Below, one piece after another: positions 5,124 to 61,511 of a stretch of 64,000 nucleotides of DNA. Source of the DNA: Candidatus Nomurabacteria bacterium RIFOXYD2_FULL_35_12 (GTDB taxonomy: Bacteria; Patescibacteriota; Minisyncoccia; Phycocordibacterales; UBA9973). Where the stretch lies: contig MFWK01000022.1 of assembly GCA_001786365.1 (NCBI GenBank), positions 15,087-79,086 on the forward strand. Reading direction: 5' to 3'. Both the position numbers and the translations under genes were made by a program. Under the pieces are notes generated by a model, which saw nothing but the letters and a program-made list of their open reading frames with translations, had not been told where the DNA came from and did no database searches. Position 1 is the first letter of the stretch. The number at the start of each line of letters is the position of its first letter.

Positions 5124-5690
5124 CTATCTTATCATAATTACAGAACCATCAGGTAAAGTTTTTTGTGCATCATTAAAACCTATTGCTTGTGCAAATCCTA
5201 TACTTCCGGCGTTTTCTTTTTTAATTACTGCTGAAAATTTAACATTAGGTATCTTGGAAGCATAAATATTCATTGCAAACTTTCCAAATTCTTTCATTAA
5301 TCCTTTACCTCGAAATTCTGGATAAGCGCGCCATGCGGATGCATGAAAATCCTCTTTTATTTCGTCTAATGATTTAGGTCCGAACCAAATTATGGCCGCT
5401 AATTTATTTGTATTTTTTTGCACAAGTACAAAAGGAGTTCTATTTTTCTTATACCAATCTTCATATTTTCCAAGCCCGAAACGTTTTCTATCGGAAGTAT
5501 TCTTTTGGATTTCTATGTCACTCTCATCTAATGACAATGCTTTTAATTGAATGACTTTTTCTTTATCCAAGCCCACAAAAACAGAAAAATTATCTCCTTC
5601 TTTACTTGTCGCATCTGCGATATTTATATTCGTATACATAAGCAAAGGCAAACTCGGCAATACTATATTTTCTTTTTGATTTATTATCAT
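5124..5690 (-). CDS. GNAT-family N-acetyltransferase (putative)
   Basis: 188 aa. Acetyl-CoA binding-like motif RGKGLMKEFGKFAM; size and context fit GNAT. Confidence 0.5.
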   Translation of the reverse strand: MIINQKENIVLPSLPLLMYTNINIADATSKEGDNFSVFVGLDKEKVIQLKALSLDESDIEIQKNTSDRKRFGLGKYEDWYKKNRTPFVLVQKNTNKLAAIIWFGPKSLDEIKEDFHASAWRAYPEFRGKGLMKEFGKFAMNIYASKIPNVKFSAVIKKENAGSIGFAQAIGFNDAQKTLPDGSVIMIR

Positions 5691-5716
5691 AGTTATAAGA
5701 TTATATCATAATTTTT

Positions 5717-11308: not shown

Positions 11309-11827
11309 TTATTTTATTAAATTTGCTAAAGCTATGACACTATTTATTGGTTCAGAAGTATCTTTTTTTACAGCTAAAGCGCCAATATCAGTAAATTTTT
11401 TATTGTAAAAAGCACTACTTGAAAAACCAACTATTTTTCCGCTAAAGCCTTCATAAAGTAATAATCTTGCTAAATCGTCACCCTTGATGCCGTTTTCTAA
11501 TGTGTAATCAATTAGAACAATATCTGGTTTGACTTCTAAAATTTTTTTTACAAAAGTAGCCAAGCTTTGATCTTTATGTAAGATAAAAGACATATTTCCA
11601 TTTGTAGCAATCATGAAATGAGGAATAAAAGCTTCACCAATATTTGCGGAGTCATCTACCATAGCAATATTCATATTCTCTAATGGTTTATATTCGGGCA
11701 AGGCTTCATAGGCGCGCCTGTATGTAGCACTACTTCCTAAAGATTTTAAAGCTGCATTAATTTTTGCTAAAATTTTTAATCTATGAGCTTCTTCTGGGTT
11801 TATTGGTGTTGTTGGTTTTTCTTCCAT
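11309..11827 (-). CDS. Stand-alone CheY-like receiver-domain protein (putative)
   Basis: 172 aa. IAMVDDS...DIVLIDYTL...GFSSS pattern (acidic pocket, phospho-Asp, Ser/Thr) with an N-terminal ~50 aa extension. Confidence 0.45.
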   Translation of the reverse strand: MEEKPTTPINPEEAHRLKILAKINAALKSLGSSATYRRAYEALPEYKPLENMNIAMVDDSANIGEAFIPHFMIATNGNMSFILHKDQSLATFVKKILEVKPDIVLIDYTLENGIKGDDLARLLLYEGFSGKIVGFSSSAFYNKKFTDIGALAVKKDTSEPINSVIALANLIK

Positions 11828-11871
11828 ATTTTTATTATATCAGATACTAAATGTAAAGATATTATTAAGAA

Positions 11872-12406: not shown

Positions 12407-13108
12407 TTATTTATTATTGGCAATTTTTTCAAAAATCCCGTCTGACCATCCTGCTATTTTTCTAACTAAATTAGAACTTCTTCTAACCATTATTTTTAAT
12501 ACTCCATGATATTTTTCTCCGGTATTTTTTCTATTTGTTTTCTTAATTTTATTATTTTTAAGATAAACTTTAGAGAAGTTATCGACCGAAAAACCAGTAG
12601 TTTTAGACCAGAATTGCCTTACTTCATCTATCCTTTCCTTATGACTCGCATGAATCATTATTTCAAATAATATCATATTATTTGGTATTTTGCATATTTC
12701 ATCAAGCCATTTTAGGAATAAAATTATCATTTTAGGATCCATATTAGAAAAAGCAGTTGGAGACCCAGGGCGATATTGTTTTTCTTTGGTACCTTCAGCC
12801 CAATAAAGAACAACCCCTATAAGAAAAAATTCTTTTATAGATAAATTTTTTATCTCAGATTTTGCTTCAAAAAATATCTTTTCTTGCTTTTCAATTCTTT
12901 GTTTCTTTTTTGCTTGTCCACCACGAAGCGATGCAAGTCTTTTAGCCTTAGTAAATATTTGTTTTTGAGCTTTAGCCATACCGACACTTCGTAACCAAAT
13001 TGAGAGAGTTGATTTAGCTACGGGAATAGCTCTCAAAATGTCTGAATAGGTTTTACCTTCTTTGCGTAAAGCAATAGCTTTTTCTTTTTCTTTCACCTTT
13101 TTTATCAT
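12407..13108 (-). CDS. HTH-domain protein with LAGLIDADG-like C-terminal domain (possible homing-endonuclease-like / mobile-element remnant)
   Basis: 233 aa. The N-terminal KEGKTYSDILRAIPVAKSTLSIWLR is an HTH. The C-terminal region carries FLIGVVLYWAEGTKE, resembling a degenerate LAGLIDADG motif. Sits directly upstream of tRNA-Gln. Confidence 0.35.
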   Translation of the reverse strand: MIKKVKEKEKAIALRKEGKTYSDILRAIPVAKSTLSIWLRSVGMAKAQKQIFTKAKRLASLRGGQAKKKQRIEKQEKIFFEAKSEIKNLSIKEFFLIGVVLYWAEGTKEKQYRPGSPTAFSNMDPKMIILFLKWLDEICKIPNNMILFEIMIHASHKERIDEVRQFWSKTTGFSVDNFSKVYLKNNKIKKTNRKNTGEKYHGVLKIMVRRSSNLVRKIAGWSDGIFEKIANNK

Positions 13109-13153
13109 AGGTAGGATATTAGTATTATAGCACTCTACCTATGTAGTAATCAA

Positions 13154-20468: not shown

Positions 20469-20584
20469 CCCGTTAGAAGTCGCGGTCGCGAATTTTATTT
20501 GGGATAATTGTATAAATTGTTTATTAAATTAATTAGCGGGGATAGGTTTTTCAAAAGAAAGACCGCGACCTGCTTCTAAGCGGG
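20469..20584. repeat. Family A MITE-like element, copy A1 (TIRs CCCGTTAGAAG...CTTCTAAGCGGG)
   Basis: cccgttagaagtcgcggtc at 20469.. and gaccgcgacctgcttctaagcggg at ..20584 are imperfect inverted repeats about 75 nt apart. The right end directly abuts the topA ATG (20585). Confidence 0.75.
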
Positions 20585-25549: not shown

Positions 25550-25608
25550 CTAAGTTGGTATTTATAACAAAAAAAATAAGAAGGACTTATCCACAGCCTA
25601 TTTGCATT

Positions 25609-25624
25609 ATCTCATATATGAGAT
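25609..25624. promoter_or_regulatory. Perfect 16-bp palindrome ATCTCATATATGAGAT just upstream of the HTH-MurA gene (candidate operator)
   Basis: The sequence is its own reverse complement. It ends about 12 nt upstream of the ATG of an ORF whose N-terminus is an XRE-type HTH. Confidence 0.4.
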
Positions 25625-25636
25625 ATACTATTGAAT

Positions 25637-27154
25637 ATGAAAAAAGAGACTGAACAACAAAAGATAGGCTACTTTATAAAAGAGCTCCGCGAGCATCGCG
25701 GAATGACTCAAGAAGAATTTGCTAAAGCACTCAATACTTCTCAAAGTTCTGTCCCCCGAATGGAAAAAGGAGAACAAAATTTCACCACTGAATTACTTTT
25801 TAAAATAAGCAACGTCCTAAACCATCAAATAGTTTCTATAAATGATTCTATTGATTTCCAAGTAAATGGAGGAAAGAAATTAAGTGGAACCATAAAAACA
25901 AACTTTTCAAAAAATGGTTCAGTGGGACTTTTGTGTGCATCTTTATTAAATAGTGGAATAACGACTCTACATGGCATCGCACGAATTGAAGAAGTTTATC
26001 GAGTAATTGAAATTTTAGAAAGTATTGGAGTTACCATCAAATGGCTCGATCATAATACTTTAACTATAACGCCTCCAAAAAAATTCACTCTAGAAAATAT
26101 AAATATAGAATCAGCAATAAAGACACGTTCAGTTGTTATGCTAATAGGACCGCTCATTCACAAATTATCATCTTTCTCTATTCCCCATCCACATGGCTGT
26201 AATCTAGGTAGACGCACTATCGCTGCTCATATTTATGCTTTAGAAAATTTCGGAGTAAAGATAAAAACAACTAGTGTAAATTATGAAATTAAAGCCAAAA
26301 AATTAAAACCAACAGAGATAGTAATGTACGAATCCGGAGACACAGCCTGCGAAAATGTTTTGACGGCTTCTGCCCTTATCCCTGGTATCACGAAAATAAA
26401 TTTTGCTAGTGCAAATTATATGGTGCAGGAAGTATGCTTTTTCCTTGAAGCTTTGGGTGTAAAGATTGATGGCATCGGTACTGCATCACTAACCATTCAT
26501 GGAATTTCTGAAATAAATAAAAATATTGAATATTGGAATAGTGAAGACCCAATAGAATCAATGATGTTTATTTCTGCCGGAATTATTACTGACTCAAAAA
26601 TCACAATAACACGCTCCCCGATTGATTTCCTATCTCTTGAATTAGAAAAATTAAAGAGAATGAATTTGAAATATAAACTTTCAAAAGTCTATTATTCATA
26701 CAACGGTAGAACAAGACTTATAGATATAGAAATCTTTCCAAGTAAATTAAAAGCGTTAAATGACAAACTTCACTCAAATCCTTATCCTGGAATAAATATA
26801 GACAATTTACCCTTTTTTGTACCGATTGCCATAAAAGCCAAAGGTCAAACAATGATTCACGACTGGGTTTATGAAAATAGAGCAATATATTTAACTGAAT
26901 TGAACCGTCTAGGAGCAGATATAACTCTAGCTGACCCGCATCGCCTCTATATCAATGGTGGAACATCACTAAAGGCAGCACAAATTGTTTGTCCTCCAGC
27001 CCTACGCCCATCTATGGTTATACTCATCTCAATGCTTGGAGCTAGTGGAACCTCAATTCTACGAAATGTTTATATGATAAATCGCGGATATGAAGAGATA
27101 GCTGGACGTTTAAATTCTATTGGTGCTGACATAAAAATAATCAAGGGGAATTAA
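25637..27154 (+). CDS. murA: UDP-N-acetylglucosamine 1-carboxyvinyltransferase fused to an N-terminal XRE-family HTH domain
   Basis: HTH: IGYFIKELREHRGMTQEEFAKALNTSQSSVPRMEKG. MurA core from ~residue 73: FQVNGGKKLSGTIKTNFSKNGSVGLLCASLLNSGITTLHGIARIEEV... Both lie in one uninterrupted frame. The ORF track starts at TTG 25631; the ATG is at 25637. Confidence 0.8.
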   Translation: MKKETEQQKIGYFIKELREHRGMTQEEFAKALNTSQSSVPRMEKGEQNFTTELLFKISNVLNHQIVSINDSIDFQVNGGKKLSGTIKTNFSKNGSVGLLCASLLNSGITTLHGIARIEEVYRVIEILESIGVTIKWLDHNTLTITPPKKFTLENINIESAIKTRSVVMLIGPLIHKLSSFSIPHPHGCNLGRRTIAAHIYALENFGVKIKTTSVNYEIKAKKLKPTEIVMYESGDTACENVLTASALIPGITKINFASANYMVQEVCFFLEALGVKIDGIGTASLTIHGISEINKNIEYWNSEDPIESMMFISAGIITDSKITITRSPIDFLSLELEKLKRMNLKYKLSKVYYSYNGRTRLIDIEIFPSKLKALNDKLHSNPYPGINIDNLPFFVPIAIKAKGQTMIHDWVYENRAIYLTELNRLGADITLADPHRLYINGGTSLKAAQIVCPPALRPSMVILISMLGASGTSILRNVYMINRGYEEIAGRLNSIGADIKIIKGN

Positions 27155-28003
27155 ATGCAAAAAGAAAAAATTATCATCATTCTAGGCCAAACTGCCACTG
27201 GTAAAAGTAATTTGGCTGTAAAAATCGCCAAAAAAATAAACGGAGAAATTATCTCCGCAGACTCAAGACAAGTCTATGTAGGGCTTGATATAGGCACCGG
27301 CAAAATTACACAAAAAGAAATGAAAGGAATTCCCCATCATTTAATTGATATCGTAAAACCAAAAAATAAATTTACAGTCGCAGAGTATAAAAAATTAGCA
27401 GAAGAAAAAATAAAAGAAATAATTTCTCGTGATAAAACACCAATTATCTGCGGAGGCACAGGATTCTATATTGATGCTATCACCAAAGGTGTCATTTTTC
27501 CGAAAGTTCCACCAAATTCTAAATTAAGAAAAATTTTAGAGAAAAAATCTACAGAACAATTATTAAAAATATTAAAAAAATTAGATCCCACAAGAGCAAA
27601 AAATATAGATTCAAAAAATAAAGTCAGACTAATTAGGGCAATTGAAATAGCTAAAGCTCTCGGTAAAGTCCCGAAAATTACAGCGGTGAAACCGCTGTAT
27701 AAATTTATAAAGATTGGTTTATATCTGCCACAAGATAAATTAAAGAAGAAAGTAGAAAAAAGAGTTAAAAAAATGTTTACCGATGGTTTACTGAATGAAA
27801 TTAAAAAGCTTAAAAAAGCCAGTATATCCCAAAAAAGGCTTTCTGAGCTAGGTTTTGAATATAACAATCCTACTTATGAAAAAGTAGTCAGAGGGACTCT
27901 ACAATATGCCAAGCACCAGATGCAATGGTTTAAACGCGATAAAGAAATAAAATGGTTTGATGCGTCAAAGAAAATATTTGACATAATTATGATGAAGTTG
28001 TAA
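27155..28003 (+). CDS. miaA: tRNA dimethylallyltransferase
   Basis: 282 aa. P-loop IIIILGQTATGKSNLAVKIAKK, SADSRQVYVGLDIGTGK. Confidence 0.85.
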   Translation: MQKEKIIIILGQTATGKSNLAVKIAKKINGEIISADSRQVYVGLDIGTGKITQKEMKGIPHHLIDIVKPKNKFTVAEYKKLAEEKIKEIISRDKTPIICGGTGFYIDAITKGVIFPKVPPNSKLRKILEKKSTEQLLKILKKLDPTRAKNIDSKNKVRLIRAIEIAKALGKVPKITAVKPLYKFIKIGLYLPQDKLKKKVEKRVKKMFTDGLLNEIKKLKKASISQKRLSELGFEYNNPTYEKVVRGTLQYAKHQMQWFKRDKEIKWFDASKKIFDIIMMKL

Positions 28004-28093: not shown

Positions 28094-28795
28094 TTGAAAA
28101 TGGACACGTCCATCAATCATCAAGATAGTTGCAAAGAAGGATTGGGAGAACAACAACGAAACAAGAGAACCATCATAACGACTGTCCTTGTAGAGGACTT
28201 TCTTTTTGACGGAGGACAAGGAGTCGATGCGGATCGTCTGTCACCAGAAACGAAAATTAAGGTGATCAAACGTGTTCTCGCAGAATCGAAGCCTTATCTC
28301 AAATACATGTTCGCTCACACACTTCGTGACGACCCCACATTGCTCAAAGCAGTTGGCGGGGATTGGAACGAGAGAAGCATGTGTTCTAATGTGTGGAACT
28401 CAGGAGTAGACTTGTGCTGGGAGACGAGAATTGGCTATCTGTTTGGATCCAAACGACAATCCCTGTATTCACCGGAGATGGCTCAAAAGACACCAGATCG
28501 AGATGAGTGGGTTAAGTCGCTGTTCTTCATCTCAGACAAGGGCTGTCTCGTTGAGGTAAAGCTCGTGTCAAAGATATCAAAAGGATTCCTCATTGAATAT
28601 CCATGCTTGATGGAGGCTAAAATGCTCACTGATGAGAGGCTCACCGAGCTTTTTGTTAGTCACGAGTTCTTTTTCCAGGGTTTACTGGAATGCATCGAAG
28701 CCCACTACACCGCTCGTATAAGTGACCAGGAAGCTCGAGCGAATAACATGCGCCGAAACAGAACGAACATCAGGAGGATTCTTTCTCTGGTTTAA
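28094..28795 (+). CDS. Hypothetical protein encoded in a GC-rich island
   Basis: 233 aa ORF with a GGAG RBS 8 nt upstream and a rho-independent terminator downstream. Local GC is near 48% against a ~30% background. No recognisable domain. Confidence 0.4.
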   Translation: MKMDTSINHQDSCKEGLGEQQRNKRTIITTVLVEDFLFDGGQGVDADRLSPETKIKVIKRVLAESKPYLKYMFAHTLRDDPTLLKAVGGDWNERSMCSNVWNSGVDLCWETRIGYLFGSKRQSLYSPEMAQKTPDRDEWVKSLFFISDKGCLVEVKLVSKISKGFLIEYPCLMEAKMLTDERLTELFVSHEFFFQGLLECIEAHYTARISDQEARANNMRRNRTNIRRILSLV

Positions 28796-37902: not shown

Positions 37903-38020
37903 CCCGTTAGAGATAGAGAATCTTTAGATTCTCGTAATTTTATTTAATAATTCGACAAAACATACTATCATTATTATTTACATACCCGTTTGATTTTTTA
38001 ACAATATGATCTCTAACGGG
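37903..38020. repeat. Family A MITE-like element, copy A2 (TIRs CCCGTTAGAGAT / ATCTCTAACGGG)
   Basis: Perfect 12-bp terminal inverted repeats about 94 nt apart. The left end directly abuts the frr start codon (37902). Confidence 0.75.
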
Positions 38021-40529: not shown

Positions 40530-40649
40530 AAAGCCTTGCGCAGGAGCTTAGAAAATAAATGAGGTAATCCGAATATTATTTTCTTGAGCGACGAGCAGTT
40601 CGCTGGCGAAGCTTCGCCAGATAGATTGCTTTTCGAGAGAAGCTATTTA
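40530..40649. repeat. Family F ~120-bp repeat, copy F1 (candidate structured RNA or MITE)
   Basis: AAAGCCTTGCGCAGGAGCTTAGAAAATAAA...TATTATTTTCTTGAGCGACGAGCAGTTCGCTGGCGAAGCTTCGCCAGATAGATTGCTTTT. About 90% identical to 48327..48445 and to the reverse complement of 61409..61511. Confidence 0.8.
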
Positions 40650-41676: not shown

Positions 41677-41794
41677 CCCGTTTAGAAGCAGGTCGCGGTC
41701 AACAAACCTCGACTTTGCTTAGTTATGTTATTAAATTTTTTATCTTTTATAAACATGATTCTTATATAAAACTGCGACCGTGGCTTCTAACGGG
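41677..41794. repeat. Family A MITE-like element, copy A3
   Basis: CCCGTTTAGAAGCAGGTCGCGGTC...GCGACCGTGGCTTCTAACGGG. The left end directly abuts the mreB start codon (41676). Confidence 0.75.
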
Positions 41795-48326: not shown

Positions 48327-48445
48327 AAAGCCTTGCGCAGGAGCTTAGAAAATAAAAATGGTATTCCATTTATTATTTTCTTGAGCGACGAGCAGTTCGC
48401 TGGCAAAGCTTTGCCAGATAGATTGCTTTTTAAAAGAAGCTATTT
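48327..48445. repeat. Family F ~120-bp repeat, copy F2 (between atpE and atpF)
   Basis: Same sequence as F1. Its central palindrome reads CTGGCAAAGCTTTGCCAG here. Confidence 0.8.
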
Positions 48446-52748: not shown

Positions 52749-54158
52749 TTAAAGCAAATCTATATCAGCTTGAATTTTTAATTTCAATTTTTGAACGCTT
52801 CGGCTATAAGAACAAGAAGTTCCCGTGCCTTTTTTTACTGTTTCATATTTTTTTGTTTTTGTATTATATATTTGGTTAAGACCTGTTCCATAGTAACTGC
52901 AAGCTGCTTTGTTTTGCTTACTAGTGCTCGTGCCCACTGCTCCAAGATCTGATAAAAACATTCCTGAAGCCATAAATGCATCTCTCGGAGCCCACGGATT
53001 GGCAACAGAACCCAAAACATCTTTCAGACGACTAGCAAAAATCTTCCAAGTAGAAGGAATAAATTGTGCCGGCCCCATAGCCCCGCCATAGCCTTTTATA
53101 TTTGCCACCGGACAAGAAACAGCAGTTTTATAAGCATTAAATCCCAGCTCCACAGTCATACTCAAAAATACCGGAACATCACGCGTAGGATTCATCACAT
53201 TTGCAAAAACTTTTCCAGTATTTTTACCGACGCCAGCCCCTGTATCAGGATTCGTCAGATAACACTGCCCGACATTTGCGCCAAGGCTGGACTCTTGAGT
53301 TAAAATCGCCAACAAAAATGCCGGATCAACTCCTAATTTACTTTTTACTTCATTTGCATATTGCAACGCTGTTCCGAAATCAATTTTTTGCGAAATACCG
53401 GCAAGACTAAAAAGAGCACTGCGAATTTTATTTGCTTGAACTTTTTTTGCATCTGCTAATTTTTGATATTCTGCCTCTTTATTTTTTGAAATAGATAAAA
53501 GTTGTTTTTTCTCTGCTTCGGATTTCGCCACAGTTTTCTGAGCACTTTCTAACTCAGCTTTTGCATCAAGTTCGGCACTTTGTTTATTTTCTAAATCTTT
53601 TTTTGCAACTTCAGTTTGTGTTTTGGCTCCATTGACTATATCAATCGAAGATTTTACAGCTTGCTTTATCGAAGTGTAAGATTCTAAATCACTATAAAAA
53701 TCTGAAACGCTTTTATTTGAAAGAATTAAACTGACTAAATTCCCATCATCAAATTCATTTGTATTTCTGAGCAATTGAGCTAAAGATTCATGTTCACGCT
53801 CTATCTTGTCGGAAAGTGATTTGATGGTATTAACTTTTTCAGTAATATTTACTTTTAATTGAGCTATTGTGAGAGCTCTGGCTTTTATTTTTGCTTTTAA
53901 TGTATTTATCTTGCTAGTTAGATAATCCACATCCCCTTTCAAAGTTCCAGAAGTTTTTTGTTGCTCTTTTTGTTGTTCCAATAAAGCTGAAAGCTGAGCT
54001 TCTATCTGAGAAAGTTCATTTTGGCAATAATCTTTATCGGACTGAGCGGAAGATACTGTAAGCGTCAAACAATCAAAAACAGCATATGTTTTATGCCCTG
54101 AAAGACTAAAAAATAAAGATATTATAAAAATAAAAGCTATGACTGCGTTTCTCGTCAT
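52749..54158 (-). CDS. Secreted coiled-coil protein with C-terminal lytic-transglycosylase-like (SLT) domain
   Basis: 469 aa. Signal peptide MTRNAVIAFIFIISLFFSLSGHKTYA, ~250 aa coiled coil, then AFLLAILTQESSLGANVGQ (the E-S catalytic context of SLT domains). Confidence 0.45.
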   Translation of the reverse strand: MTRNAVIAFIFIISLFFSLSGHKTYAVFDCLTLTVSSAQSDKDYCQNELSQIEAQLSALLEQQKEQQKTSGTLKGDVDYLTSKINTLKAKIKARALTIAQLKVNITEKVNTIKSLSDKIEREHESLAQLLRNTNEFDDGNLVSLILSNKSVSDFYSDLESYTSIKQAVKSSIDIVNGAKTQTEVAKKDLENKQSAELDAKAELESAQKTVAKSEAEKKQLLSISKNKEAEYQKLADAKKVQANKIRSALFSLAGISQKIDFGTALQYANEVKSKLGVDPAFLLAILTQESSLGANVGQCYLTNPDTGAGVGKNTGKVFANVMNPTRDVPVFLSMTVELGFNAYKTAVSCPVANIKGYGGAMGPAQFIPSTWKIFASRLKDVLGSVANPWAPRDAFMASGMFLSDLGAVGTSTSKQNKAACSYYGTGLNQIYNTKTKKYETVKKGTGTSCSYSRSVQKLKLKIQADIDLL

Positions 54159-54190
54159 AGCTTTTATTATACCATAATTTTATAAAATTT

Positions 54191-56044: not shown

Positions 56045-56126
56045 CCCGTTAGAAATAGGAAATGCTTTGCATTTCCATTGTTATATTACTTTTAATAAAA
56101 ATTTTAACCATATGATTTCTAACGGG
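56045..56126. repeat. Family A MITE-like element, copy A5
   Basis: TIRs CCCGTTAGAAAT / ATTTCTAACGGG, with an internal palindrome GGAAATGCTTTGCATTTCC. The left end abuts the fba start codon (56044). Confidence 0.75.
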
Positions 56127-61408: not shown

Positions 61409-61511
61409 AAAGCAATCTATCTGGGCAAGCTTGCCCAGCGAACTGCTCGTCGCTCAAGAAAATAATAAATAGAATACTATTTTTATTTTCTAAGCTCCTG
61501 CGCAAGGCTTT
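61409..61511. repeat. Family F ~120-bp repeat, copy F3 (reverse orientation, between divergent genes)
   Basis: Reverse complement matches F1/F2. The central palindrome here is CTGGGCAAGCTTGCCCAG. Confidence 0.8.

Follow-up and report, generated by a model that had tools for sequence, protein, structure and literature searches.

Fusions of an enzyme with a repressor are already known as a kind. BirA is a bifunctional ligase and repressor (PMC6391492, PMC4462617), and RbkR is an archaeal enzyme-repressor (PMC5397151). In NadR and PutA, as in RbkR, a DNA-binding domain is fused to an active metabolic enzyme and regulates the pathway to which that enzyme belongs, and PutA autoregulates from the divergent putA-putP region. 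The N-terminal domain of NadR is of the XRE (HTH_3) class. MurA catalyses the committed step of peptidoglycan synthesis and is the target of fosfomycin; canonical MurA is controlled post-translationally, by feedback from UDP-N-acetylmuramic acid (UDP-MurNAc) and, in Firmicutes, by ClpCP-dependent degradation. Small XRE repressors are negative autoregulators, which act as dimers on short palindromes over their own promoters. Here, we describe a gene, HTH-murA, in which an XRE-type helix-turn-helix (HTH) domain and a MurA are joined in one polypeptide, together with a palindrome immediately upstream of it. The gene lies in a stretch of 64,000 nucleotides of contig MFWK01000022.1, from Candidatus Nomurabacteria bacterium RIFOXYD2_FULL_35_12 (hereafter, the window is this whole stretch). 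Comparison with related loci leads us to propose, with a probability of roughly two in three, that the protein is a bifunctional trigger enzyme, that is, a competent MurA whose XRE-type HTH binds the palindrome and represses its own murA-miaA operon.

A preliminary description of the window, made from the letters alone, had reported an XRE-type domain in one frame with a complete MurA, and this is borne out. A single unbroken open reading frame (ORF) of 505 codons runs from the ATG at 25637 to the stop at 27152-27154, its product matches both HTH_3 and EPSP_synthase, and all eight of the catalytic or substrate residues checked are present (K92, N93, R164, C188, R193, D389, R415 and R457, which we take to be the counterparts of E. 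coli K22, N23, R91, C115, R120, D305, R371 and R397). The N-terminal domain belongs to the XRE HTH family by its Pfam matches, which are HTH_3 (residues 14-62; E 4.8e-14; 52.6 bits, cut-off 23), HTH_31 and HTH_19, and not the RodZ-type HTH_25. The EPSP_synthase match (PF00275; residues 76-490; E 3.6e-39) covers profile positions 1-415 of 417. The NCBIfam cut-offs give a divided picture: the protein passes that of the MurA subfamily model NF006873 (308 bits; cut-off 297) and falls short of those of the murA equivalog model TIGR01072 (295.5 bits; cut-off 392.7) and of NF009470 (203 bits; cut-off 552). By fold, catalytic residues and score against the subfamily model the protein belongs to the MurA family, within a divergent clade of it; a DNA-binding domain and an enzyme domain whose catalytic competence is read from sequence only are thus found in one polypeptide. 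An in-frame TTG is present at 25631, two codons 5' of the ATG; beyond codon 44, the frame holds no ATG, GTG or TTG until the MurA domain begins, which leaves no internal start for a canonical 420-aa MurA.

An AlphaFold2 (AF2) model of the protein, built from a 77-sequence alignment, had a predicted local distance difference test score (pLDDT) of 94.7 and a predicted template modelling score (pTM) of 0.86. The HTH domain is modelled as four helices (residues 6-20, 25-31, 38-43 and 51-61; pLDDT 92-96) and is followed by a linker that lacks secondary structure at residues 62-71 (mean pLDDT ~67 at residues 61-70). Solved MurA structures in the PDB align with residues 74-504 at 25-28% identity, and the MurA part of the model matches them with template modelling (TM) scores of 0.92-0.93. 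A fold search retrieved ordinary MurA, NikO and AroA structures, and no solved HTH-MurA was found among its matches. The nearest solved relatives of the N-terminal domain, by sequence, are two designed proteins, followed by a group which includes DNA-binding XRE repressors (the ICEBs1 Xre-family regulator, C.Esp1396I, HipB and PezA).

The same architecture is found well beyond this genome. HTH and EPSP_synthase domains are both present in every one of the 120 closest protein clusters (81-100% identity; 500-521 aa). Those with a named source belong to Paceibacterota, Nomurabacteria or Patescibacteria, and the clusters are annotated as MurA or as 'helix-turn-helix domain-containing protein'. When GTDB species representatives were scanned for the junction region of HTH-MurA (pattern TSQS[AS][VI][ANP]R[IM]E, confirmed by tblastn), at least 586 species matched, almost all of them Patescibacteria; the best 80 of these matches belong to Paceibacterota, Nomura-, Zambryski-, Uhr-, Doudna-, Lipton- and Taylorbacteria, and to Saccharibacteria, including Ca. 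Nanosynbacter. Complete orthologues were recovered from 75 distinct GTDB species (492-533 aa; 51-100% identity to the window protein), and the eight catalytic residues are kept in 75/75. Across fused proteins of 36-91% identity, the HTH retains the invariant stretch T34-S35-Q36-S37...R41.E43.G45.Q47-N48. Outside the superphylum, an exhaustive search of representatives found a fused 246-member cluster from many species of Nonomuraea (Actinomycetota), at 50% identity and with intact catalytic residues. Close unfused relatives also exist, such as P0121 (443 aa; 59% identity). From these comparisons the fusion is judged genuine and under selection. A frameshift or missed stop joining a small XRE gene to murA, raised in the preliminary description as a possible refutation, was rejected: the frame is unbroken, no internal start would give a canonical MurA, and both architecture and length recur in hundreds of independent assemblies. 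The 120 clusters and 75 orthologues answer in the affirmative its question of whether related MurA proteins carry the fusion. Its remark that such a fusion is unusual stands relative to model bacteria only; in Patescibacteria the fusion is widespread.

The preliminary description had also placed a 16-bp palindrome (ATCTCATATATGAGAT, 25609-25624) 5' of the ATG. The element is there as claimed, and with one more base pair on each side it makes a perfect 18-mer, TATCTCATATATGAGATA (25608-25625), whose half-sites are centred 10 bp apart and whose 3' end is 11 nt from the murA ATG. A consensus promoter scan gave TTTGCA-17 nt-TATACT at 25601-25629; the palindrome thus fills the spacer and overlaps the -10-like box. 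At the locus L001, which encodes an 89% identical protein and has other upstream neighbours, a 29-nt block, CTTGCATTATCTCATATATGAGATATACT, is identical, including the TTGCAT that abuts the palindrome, although the remaining intergenic DNA is unrelated; across loci, a weak T.TTG signal is seen at -10 to -6 relative to the site. A reading of the palindrome as an RNA or DNA hairpin, or as the terminator of the tRNA-Leu gene which lies upstream of it on the same strand as murA, was rejected, the element having neither a loop nor a T-run after it. Moreover, hybrid sites that combine an ATATCA arm with a GAGAT arm (L002, L008, L012, L015 and L030) break the complementarity of a hairpin, yet stay compatible with recognition by a protein.

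No Shine-Dalgarno sequence is found 5' of the murA ATG, and a Shine-Dalgarno-like sequence precedes only 6/53 of the window genes. Many window genes carry a TATAAT-like box, often TGnTATAAT, 6-10 nt 5' of the start codon (for example at 5690-5715, 11827-11852, 13108-13133 and 54158-54183). The rarity of the former and the placement of the latter suggest that leaderless mRNAs prevail in this genome, and murA appears to fit the pattern. The right arm of the palindrome doubles as the -10 element of this apparent leaderless mRNA, and promoter and operator are not cleanly separable. A separate motif, ...CT(N)TCTAACGGG (or ...GACCTGCTTCTAARCGGG), stands directly 5' of the ATG in four window genes with no nearby -10 box, at 20560-20584 (before topA), at 41677-41701 (before mreB, minus strand), and at 37903-37927 and 56045-56069 (both on the minus strand). 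The same type of motif precedes murA in L003, L004 and L094, and in the first two of these it takes the place of the leaderless arrangement, with the operator 136-151 nt upstream. This motif may serve as a conserved element of the 5' leader or of translation initiation.

The case for an operator comes from other genomes. The motif ATMTCA-N4-TGAKAT (ATMTCANNNNTGAKAT) was scored in 79 GTDB fused loci with enough upstream sequence; in the 120 nt that precede the fused gene, 58/79 have an exact copy and 72/79 a copy with at most 2 mismatches, and four further loci have exact sites 136-174 nt upstream. When 75 sites were aligned, 18 positions were conserved (T-ATATCA-TATA-TGATAT-A, at 1.5-2 bits per position), including two outer ones absent from the search pattern, with flanks at background; across loci, the ATG is most often 9 or 12 nt beyond the end of the site, in two sharp peaks. 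Over 168 loci (961 kb), 120 exact sites were found, against 0.3 expected from shuffles, and in 84 of these cases a fused ORF follows directly. As a control we used metagenomic relatives of P0121, the closest unfused MurA (63 fused and 17 unfused). A site with at most 2 mismatches within 200 nt upstream is present in 48/59 fused loci versus 1/17 unfused ones (Fisher p = 1.7e-8), and at most 1 mismatch gives 36/59 versus 0/17 (p = 2.5e-6); unfused murA is typically divergent from mreB, with ordinary -10 boxes and no palindrome. In Nonomuraea, an exact site (ATCTCATATGTGAGAT) is found 13 nt 5' of the fused gene, in GC-rich DNA just 3' of a co-directional gene. Presence in most fused loci but almost none of the unfused ones, and in Nonomuraea, argues that the element tracks the HTH and not murA in general, and by these comparisons the palindrome moves with the fused gene between phyla. 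The suggestion in the preliminary description that the palindrome occupies the position of an autoregulatory operator has thereby gained ground, the same palindrome family occurring at the same position in most fused loci and being near-absent from unfused ones; by comparison of loci, the operator reading is strongly supported. We also looked for co-variation between the arm variant (ATCTCA/ATATCA) and the recognition helix (SQSSVP/SQSAVA), and found no support for it, since ATCTCA also occurs with SQSAVA (L027) and hybrids exist.

Several observations extend this picture of the site. Saccharibacteria-type fused genes have a second operator-like site, ATATCAGYCTTGAKAT, within the sequence that encodes the HTH, over the codons N-I-S-L-E, at about +143 to +158 of the coding sequence (L043, L048-L050, L053, L055, L058, L063 and L115-L158), and a similar site with 1 mismatch is present in the GC-rich Nonomuraea gene (L084, 6140-6155). 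Codon usage in 20 loci encoding NISLE is biased to the motif, with Ile as ATC in 19/20 (background 0.44) and Leu as CTT in 13/20 (background 0.18). The clade of the window protein does not have this intragenic site (3 mismatches by eye). The +143 site could be an auxiliary operator for looping or roadblock. Saccharibacteria loci (L066-L079 and others) carry an extra half-site, TTATATCATTG, which lies ~20-35 nt 5' of the main site and close to the -35 region; in these loci the gene on the divergent side, at 40-70 nt, is glyA (serine hydroxymethyltransferase) and not murB. The Nonomuraea locus (L084: Nonomuraea sp. NEAU-A123, JAHFZZ010000002.1, 383304-396833) has the intact HTH-MurA and the operator alongside a phage-type integrase and AMP-binding/formyltransferase genes. 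HTH-MurA is probably an accessory, horizontally acquired second MurA in Nonomuraea; a role in resistance or the like is speculation.

The site is also found at other mur genes. About a dozen loci of the Paceibacteria type have HTH-murA and murB (Pfam MurB_C plus FAD_binding_4) in divergent orientation, with the start codon of murB 2-12 nt left of the palindrome, which in these loci forms the shared core of two back-to-back, apparently leaderless promoters. At L037, a second exact site lies 4 nt 5' of a MurC-type ligase gene, and at L005 a site lies 5' of a small P-loop gene which itself precedes HTH-murA.

More distant fused proteins (31-43% identity; P0128, P0129, P0138, P0141, P0147, P0193 and P0247) keep the HTH and are without the Cys loop and most of the catalytic arginines (R91, R120, R397). 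Five of their loci were examined (L083, L085, L086, L087 and L088, encoding P0128, P0138, P0129, P0147 and P0247, respectively). At L083, the gene is divergent from a 164-aa gene, a Mur ligase gene and canonical murA, with an exact site in the 25-nt intergenic region; at L086, it is divergent from canonical murA-murB and is followed by ddl and a Mur ligase gene, and the exact site is abutted by TTGACA; at L087, it is divergent from murA-murB and the site is found at 2 mismatches only. In all three of these loci, Mur ligase or ddl genes come after the paralogue. At L088, it lies downstream of murB and relA, with an exact site, and at L085 it is the last gene in a NUDIX-nucleotidyltransferase operon, with sites at 1 mismatch. 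The palindrome is thus present at 0-1 mismatch in 4/5 of these loci, and 3/5 are divergent from canonical murA operons. The canonical MurA proteins encoded beside the pseudoenzymes keep K, N, R, C, R and D and share 22-23% identity with the dead fused copy. Judged from these sequences, the dead paralogues look like a family of pseudoenzyme regulators for peptidoglycan precursor genes. Since they keep the HTH and the operator beside mur genes, the combination of an HTH with a MurA fold would work as a mur-gene regulator; and since catalytic residues decay where another MurA is present, the fully conserved protein of the window type is likely to be a working enzyme. Such a protein is probably the only MurA of its organism, and among the 20 larger window ORFs that were annotated no other EPSP-synthase-like gene turned up.

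The comparisons establish the fused architecture and its conservation, the intact catalytic residues, the joint occurrence of site and HTH, and the genes at which the site lies. We infer DNA binding, repression, a dimer and a leaderless transcript from the arrangement of the site and the gene, and the proposed mechanism is as follows. Two molecules of HTH-MurA would occupy the palindrome as a dimer, with one HTH per half-site; the 10-bp spacing of the half-sites would place both on one face of the helix. The bound protein would cover the spacer and the -10 box, beside the transcription start, and block RNA polymerase, with negative autoregulation of a leaderless or nearly leaderless murA-miaA transcript as the outcome. 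In relatives, the circuit would extend to murB and, in one locus, to murC, that is, to the cytoplasmic stage at which the making of peptidoglycan precursors begins. Upon binding of UDP-N-acetylglucosamine (UDP-GlcNAc), MurA passes through a large open-to-closed transition, and it forms a tight 'dormant' complex with UDP-MurNAc and the adduct of phosphoenolpyruvate (PEP) to the catalytic Cys (e.g. 3SU9, 3SWD). Such ligand-driven states make the enzyme body a candidate sensor that couples pathway flux to DNA binding, and the ligand state of the MurA body may set DNA binding in a BirA-like feedback; which ligand this would be, and in which direction it would act, is speculative. A broader picture can be drawn, which we consider tentative and put at clearly less than even odds. 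In Patescibacteria and, by transfer, in some actinomycetes, MurA would itself be a transcription factor, with its ligand state (UDP-GlcNAc, PEP, UDP-MurNAc) tuning repression; the palindrome would be the back-to-back -10 core of leaderless murA, murB and one murC; some lineages would have pure pseudoenzyme regulators; and the +143 operator would serve looping or roadblock.

Several points limit the proposal of a bifunctional trigger enzyme or weigh against it. The window by itself does not make the palindrome significant: it holds five perfect palindromes of at least 18 bp against 0.64 per window simulated with a first-order Markov model, 48% of simulated windows hold at least one, and with perfect 18-mers expected at ~0.6 per simulated window an argument from the window alone was rejected; the significance of the element rests on its conservation in other genomes. 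The murA palindrome is the sole match to ATMTCANNNNTGAKAT at 1 mismatch or fewer in the 64-kb window, so that only autoregulation can be claimed there; a regulon within the window was considered and discarded, the 12 other matches, all at 2 mismatches, looking like chance. Fused loci with no recognisable site within 120-200 nt number 7/79 in the first set and 11/59 in the second. MurA is normally monomeric, and binding, repression and dimerisation are all predictions. The sub-threshold score of the protein against the murA equivalog model TIGR01072 marks it as a divergent MurA; and that the gene is the only murA of the organism is no more than probable, the window being 64 kb of the genome.

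In its right arm (TGATATAAT or TGAGATATACT) the palindrome coincides with the extended -10 consensus of the organism, TGATATAAT occurs 5' of at least two other window genes, and in the divergent-murB loci a pair of -10 boxes set back to back would be another way to read the element. It might then be only a promoter, made of two extended -10 elements (TGnTATAAT on each strand) that serve divergent leaderless genes, murB and murA in the ancestral state, with an HTH that does not bind it. The match of the right arm and the next bases to TGnTATAAT, the start of murB 2-12 nt left of the palindrome and the abundance in the window of leaderless genes with TATAAT 6-10 nt 5' of the ATG all agree with such an origin. 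We nevertheless consider it unlikely, as the left arm is kept where there is no leftward transcription (the window, L001, Nonomuraea, L088 and L005), unfused murA genes, including those divergent from mreB, are without the palindrome (0/17 at 1 mismatch or fewer), and the codon-biased intragenic copy at +143 in Saccharibacteria-type genes and Nonomuraea would go unexplained. It is improbable to a like degree that the fused protein does no more than regulate, with a MurA-fold body that senses a ligand and has no physiological enzyme activity, while a separate canonical MurA makes the precursor. The dead fused paralogues beside canonical murA, the TIGR01072 score and the limited portion of the genome in view would all suit that account; the eight catalytic residues, however, are intact in the window protein and in 75/75 orthologues down to 51% identity, they have decayed exactly in lineages with an adjacent canonical murA, which implies selection on catalysis here, no second EPSP-synthase-like gene turned up among the 20 larger annotated window ORFs, and the synteny of the gene with miaA, alr and ddl is that of a housekeeping region. 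In RodZ, an XRE-like HTH contacts MreB, and with this precedent, and with mreB and other wall genes in the window, the HTH could be a protein-protein module which tethers MurA to the wall machinery or to a partner regulator, another factor binding the palindrome. This is less probable again: the Pfam matches are HTH_3, HTH_31 and HTH_19 and not HTH_25, the putative recognition helix (TSQSxxxRxExGxQN) does not vary and neither, in parallel, does the DNA motif, which is found together with the HTH (p = 1.7e-8) and accompanies the gene from one phylum to another. An assembly or annotation artefact, a frameshift or missed stop merging an XRE gene with murA, had nothing beyond its prior possibility in its favour and is very improbable indeed, given one unbroken frame, an identical 505-aa protein in another dataset, and hundreds of independent assemblies of the same architecture with a conserved junction that is modelled as a short linker. 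A trigger enzyme that represses its own operon remains the reading we prefer, and its features are collected in Table 1.

Table 1. Features of the HTH-murA locus, with positions in the window
Feature	Position	Strand	Remarks
-35-like element	25601..25607	+	TTTGCA 25601-25606 or TTGCAT 25602-25607; promoter scan
Perfect 18-bp palindrome TATCTCATATATGAGATA	25608..25625		Proposed operator for the fused HTH; half-sites ATCTCA and TGAGAT
-10-like hexamer TATACT	25624..25629	+	Overlaps right palindrome arm; ends 7 nt 5' of the ATG
HTH-murA coding sequence	25637..27154	+	505 aa plus stop; identical protein P0001 in public data
XRE/Cro-C1-type HTH domain	25676..25822	+	aa 14-62; Pfam HTH_3
Linker, HTH to MurA domain	25823..25849	+	aa 63-71; roughly 10 residues
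MurA (UDP-GlcNAc 1-carboxyvinyltransferase) domain	25850..27151	+	aa 72-505; Cys188 codon 26198-26200
miaA (tRNA isopentenyltransferase)	27155..28003	+	Pfam IPPT, E 1.6e-60

The stop codon of murA abuts the start codon of miaA (TAA-ATG), the murA-miaA neighbourhood is also found in L001, and miaA is probably co-transcribed with murA, under the same promoter and putative operator. The surrounding region is an AT-rich (about 35% GC), housekeeping segment of the chromosome, with the gene order serS, dprA, topA, relA/spoT, parB, tRNA-Leu, murA-miaA, alr, ddl, mreB and ATP synthase genes. Directly 3' of miaA, a 233-aa ORF (28094-28795, plus strand) has no Pfam match, and aldehyde dehydrogenase and thiamine pyrophosphate (TPP)-enzyme genes adjoin it; the GC content of the 28-32 kb region is 0.39 versus about 0.34, and the region could be an acquired segment. 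Three related GC-rich perfect 18-bp palindromes, CTGGCGAAGCTTCGCCAG, CTGGCAAAGCTTTGCCAG and CTGGGCAAGCTTGCCCAG, are intergenic (40603-40620, 48400-48417 and 61421-61438), and may be a repeated terminator hairpin or a site for another DNA-binding protein.

Fused proteins of this kind are already in public databases, under generic names. A full-text literature search found no description of the fusion, the operator or the pseudoenzyme paralogues, although absence there is no proof that they are undescribed; the search did return an unrelated MurA from Mucilaginibacter (PMC8066302). Enzyme-repressor fusions are thus familiar, whereas for the MurA version no published description was found. The control of MurA levels is an active question, as with its proteolytic control in Firmicutes, and gene regulation is almost unexplored in Patescibacteria, with their tiny genomes and few regulators. 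If the proposal is true, HTH-MurA would be a new trigger enzyme on an essential pathway, its 18-bp operator, which runs from Paceibacteria to Saccharibacteria, would be among the most widely conserved cis-regulatory sites known to us in the superphylum, and the fused proteins would form a natural series from an active enzyme-regulator to a pseudoenzyme-regulator. The system is directly testable: Nonomuraea is culturable, and Saccharibacteria such as Nanosynbacter are cultivated on host bacteria.

How, then, does HTH-MurA compare with the described systems? As in the trigger enzymes, its putative operator is found at promoters of its own pathway, mostly at its own promoter and also at those of murB and murC (L037); for the dead paralogues, it lies between the regulator gene and a canonical murA operon in three loci. 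With canonical MurA (E. coli and Enterobacter cloacae; PDB 1UAE, 1NAW and 3SU9) it shares the two-lobed fold and the same eight residues, including the Cys targeted by fosfomycin; canonical MurA, however, is about 420 aa long and has no DNA-binding domain, whereas the window protein has ~70 extra N-terminal residues. Small XRE repressors (the C-proteins of restriction-modification systems, HipB, PezA and the ImmR-like Xre of ICEBs1) are among the nearest solved relatives of the N-terminal domain but, unlike HTH-MurA, they stand alone at ~70-160 aa or are paired with a toxin, and none is fused to a biosynthetic enzyme. NadR, PutA and RbkR do not involve MurA or peptidoglycan synthesis, and their operators and ligands are unrelated to those of HTH-MurA, which differs from them also in its specific spread, wide in Patescibacteria and with Nonomuraea in addition. 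Of the four trigger enzymes compared, BirA is, in our analysis, the closest. Both proteins carry an N-terminal HTH-type DNA-binding domain and a pathway enzyme in one polypeptide; the palindromic operator of BirA overlaps divergent pathway promoters, much as in the murB/HTH-murA loci; and the ligand state of the enzyme controls DNA binding by BirA, as we propose for HTH-MurA. They differ in that the HTH of BirA is winged and that of HTH-MurA is of the XRE/Cro type, in that the enzyme folds and pathways are unrelated, and in that the corepressor and the mechanism of dimerisation are known for BirA. Moreover, E. coli BirA spares its own gene, whereas the primary target proposed for HTH-MurA is its own promoter.

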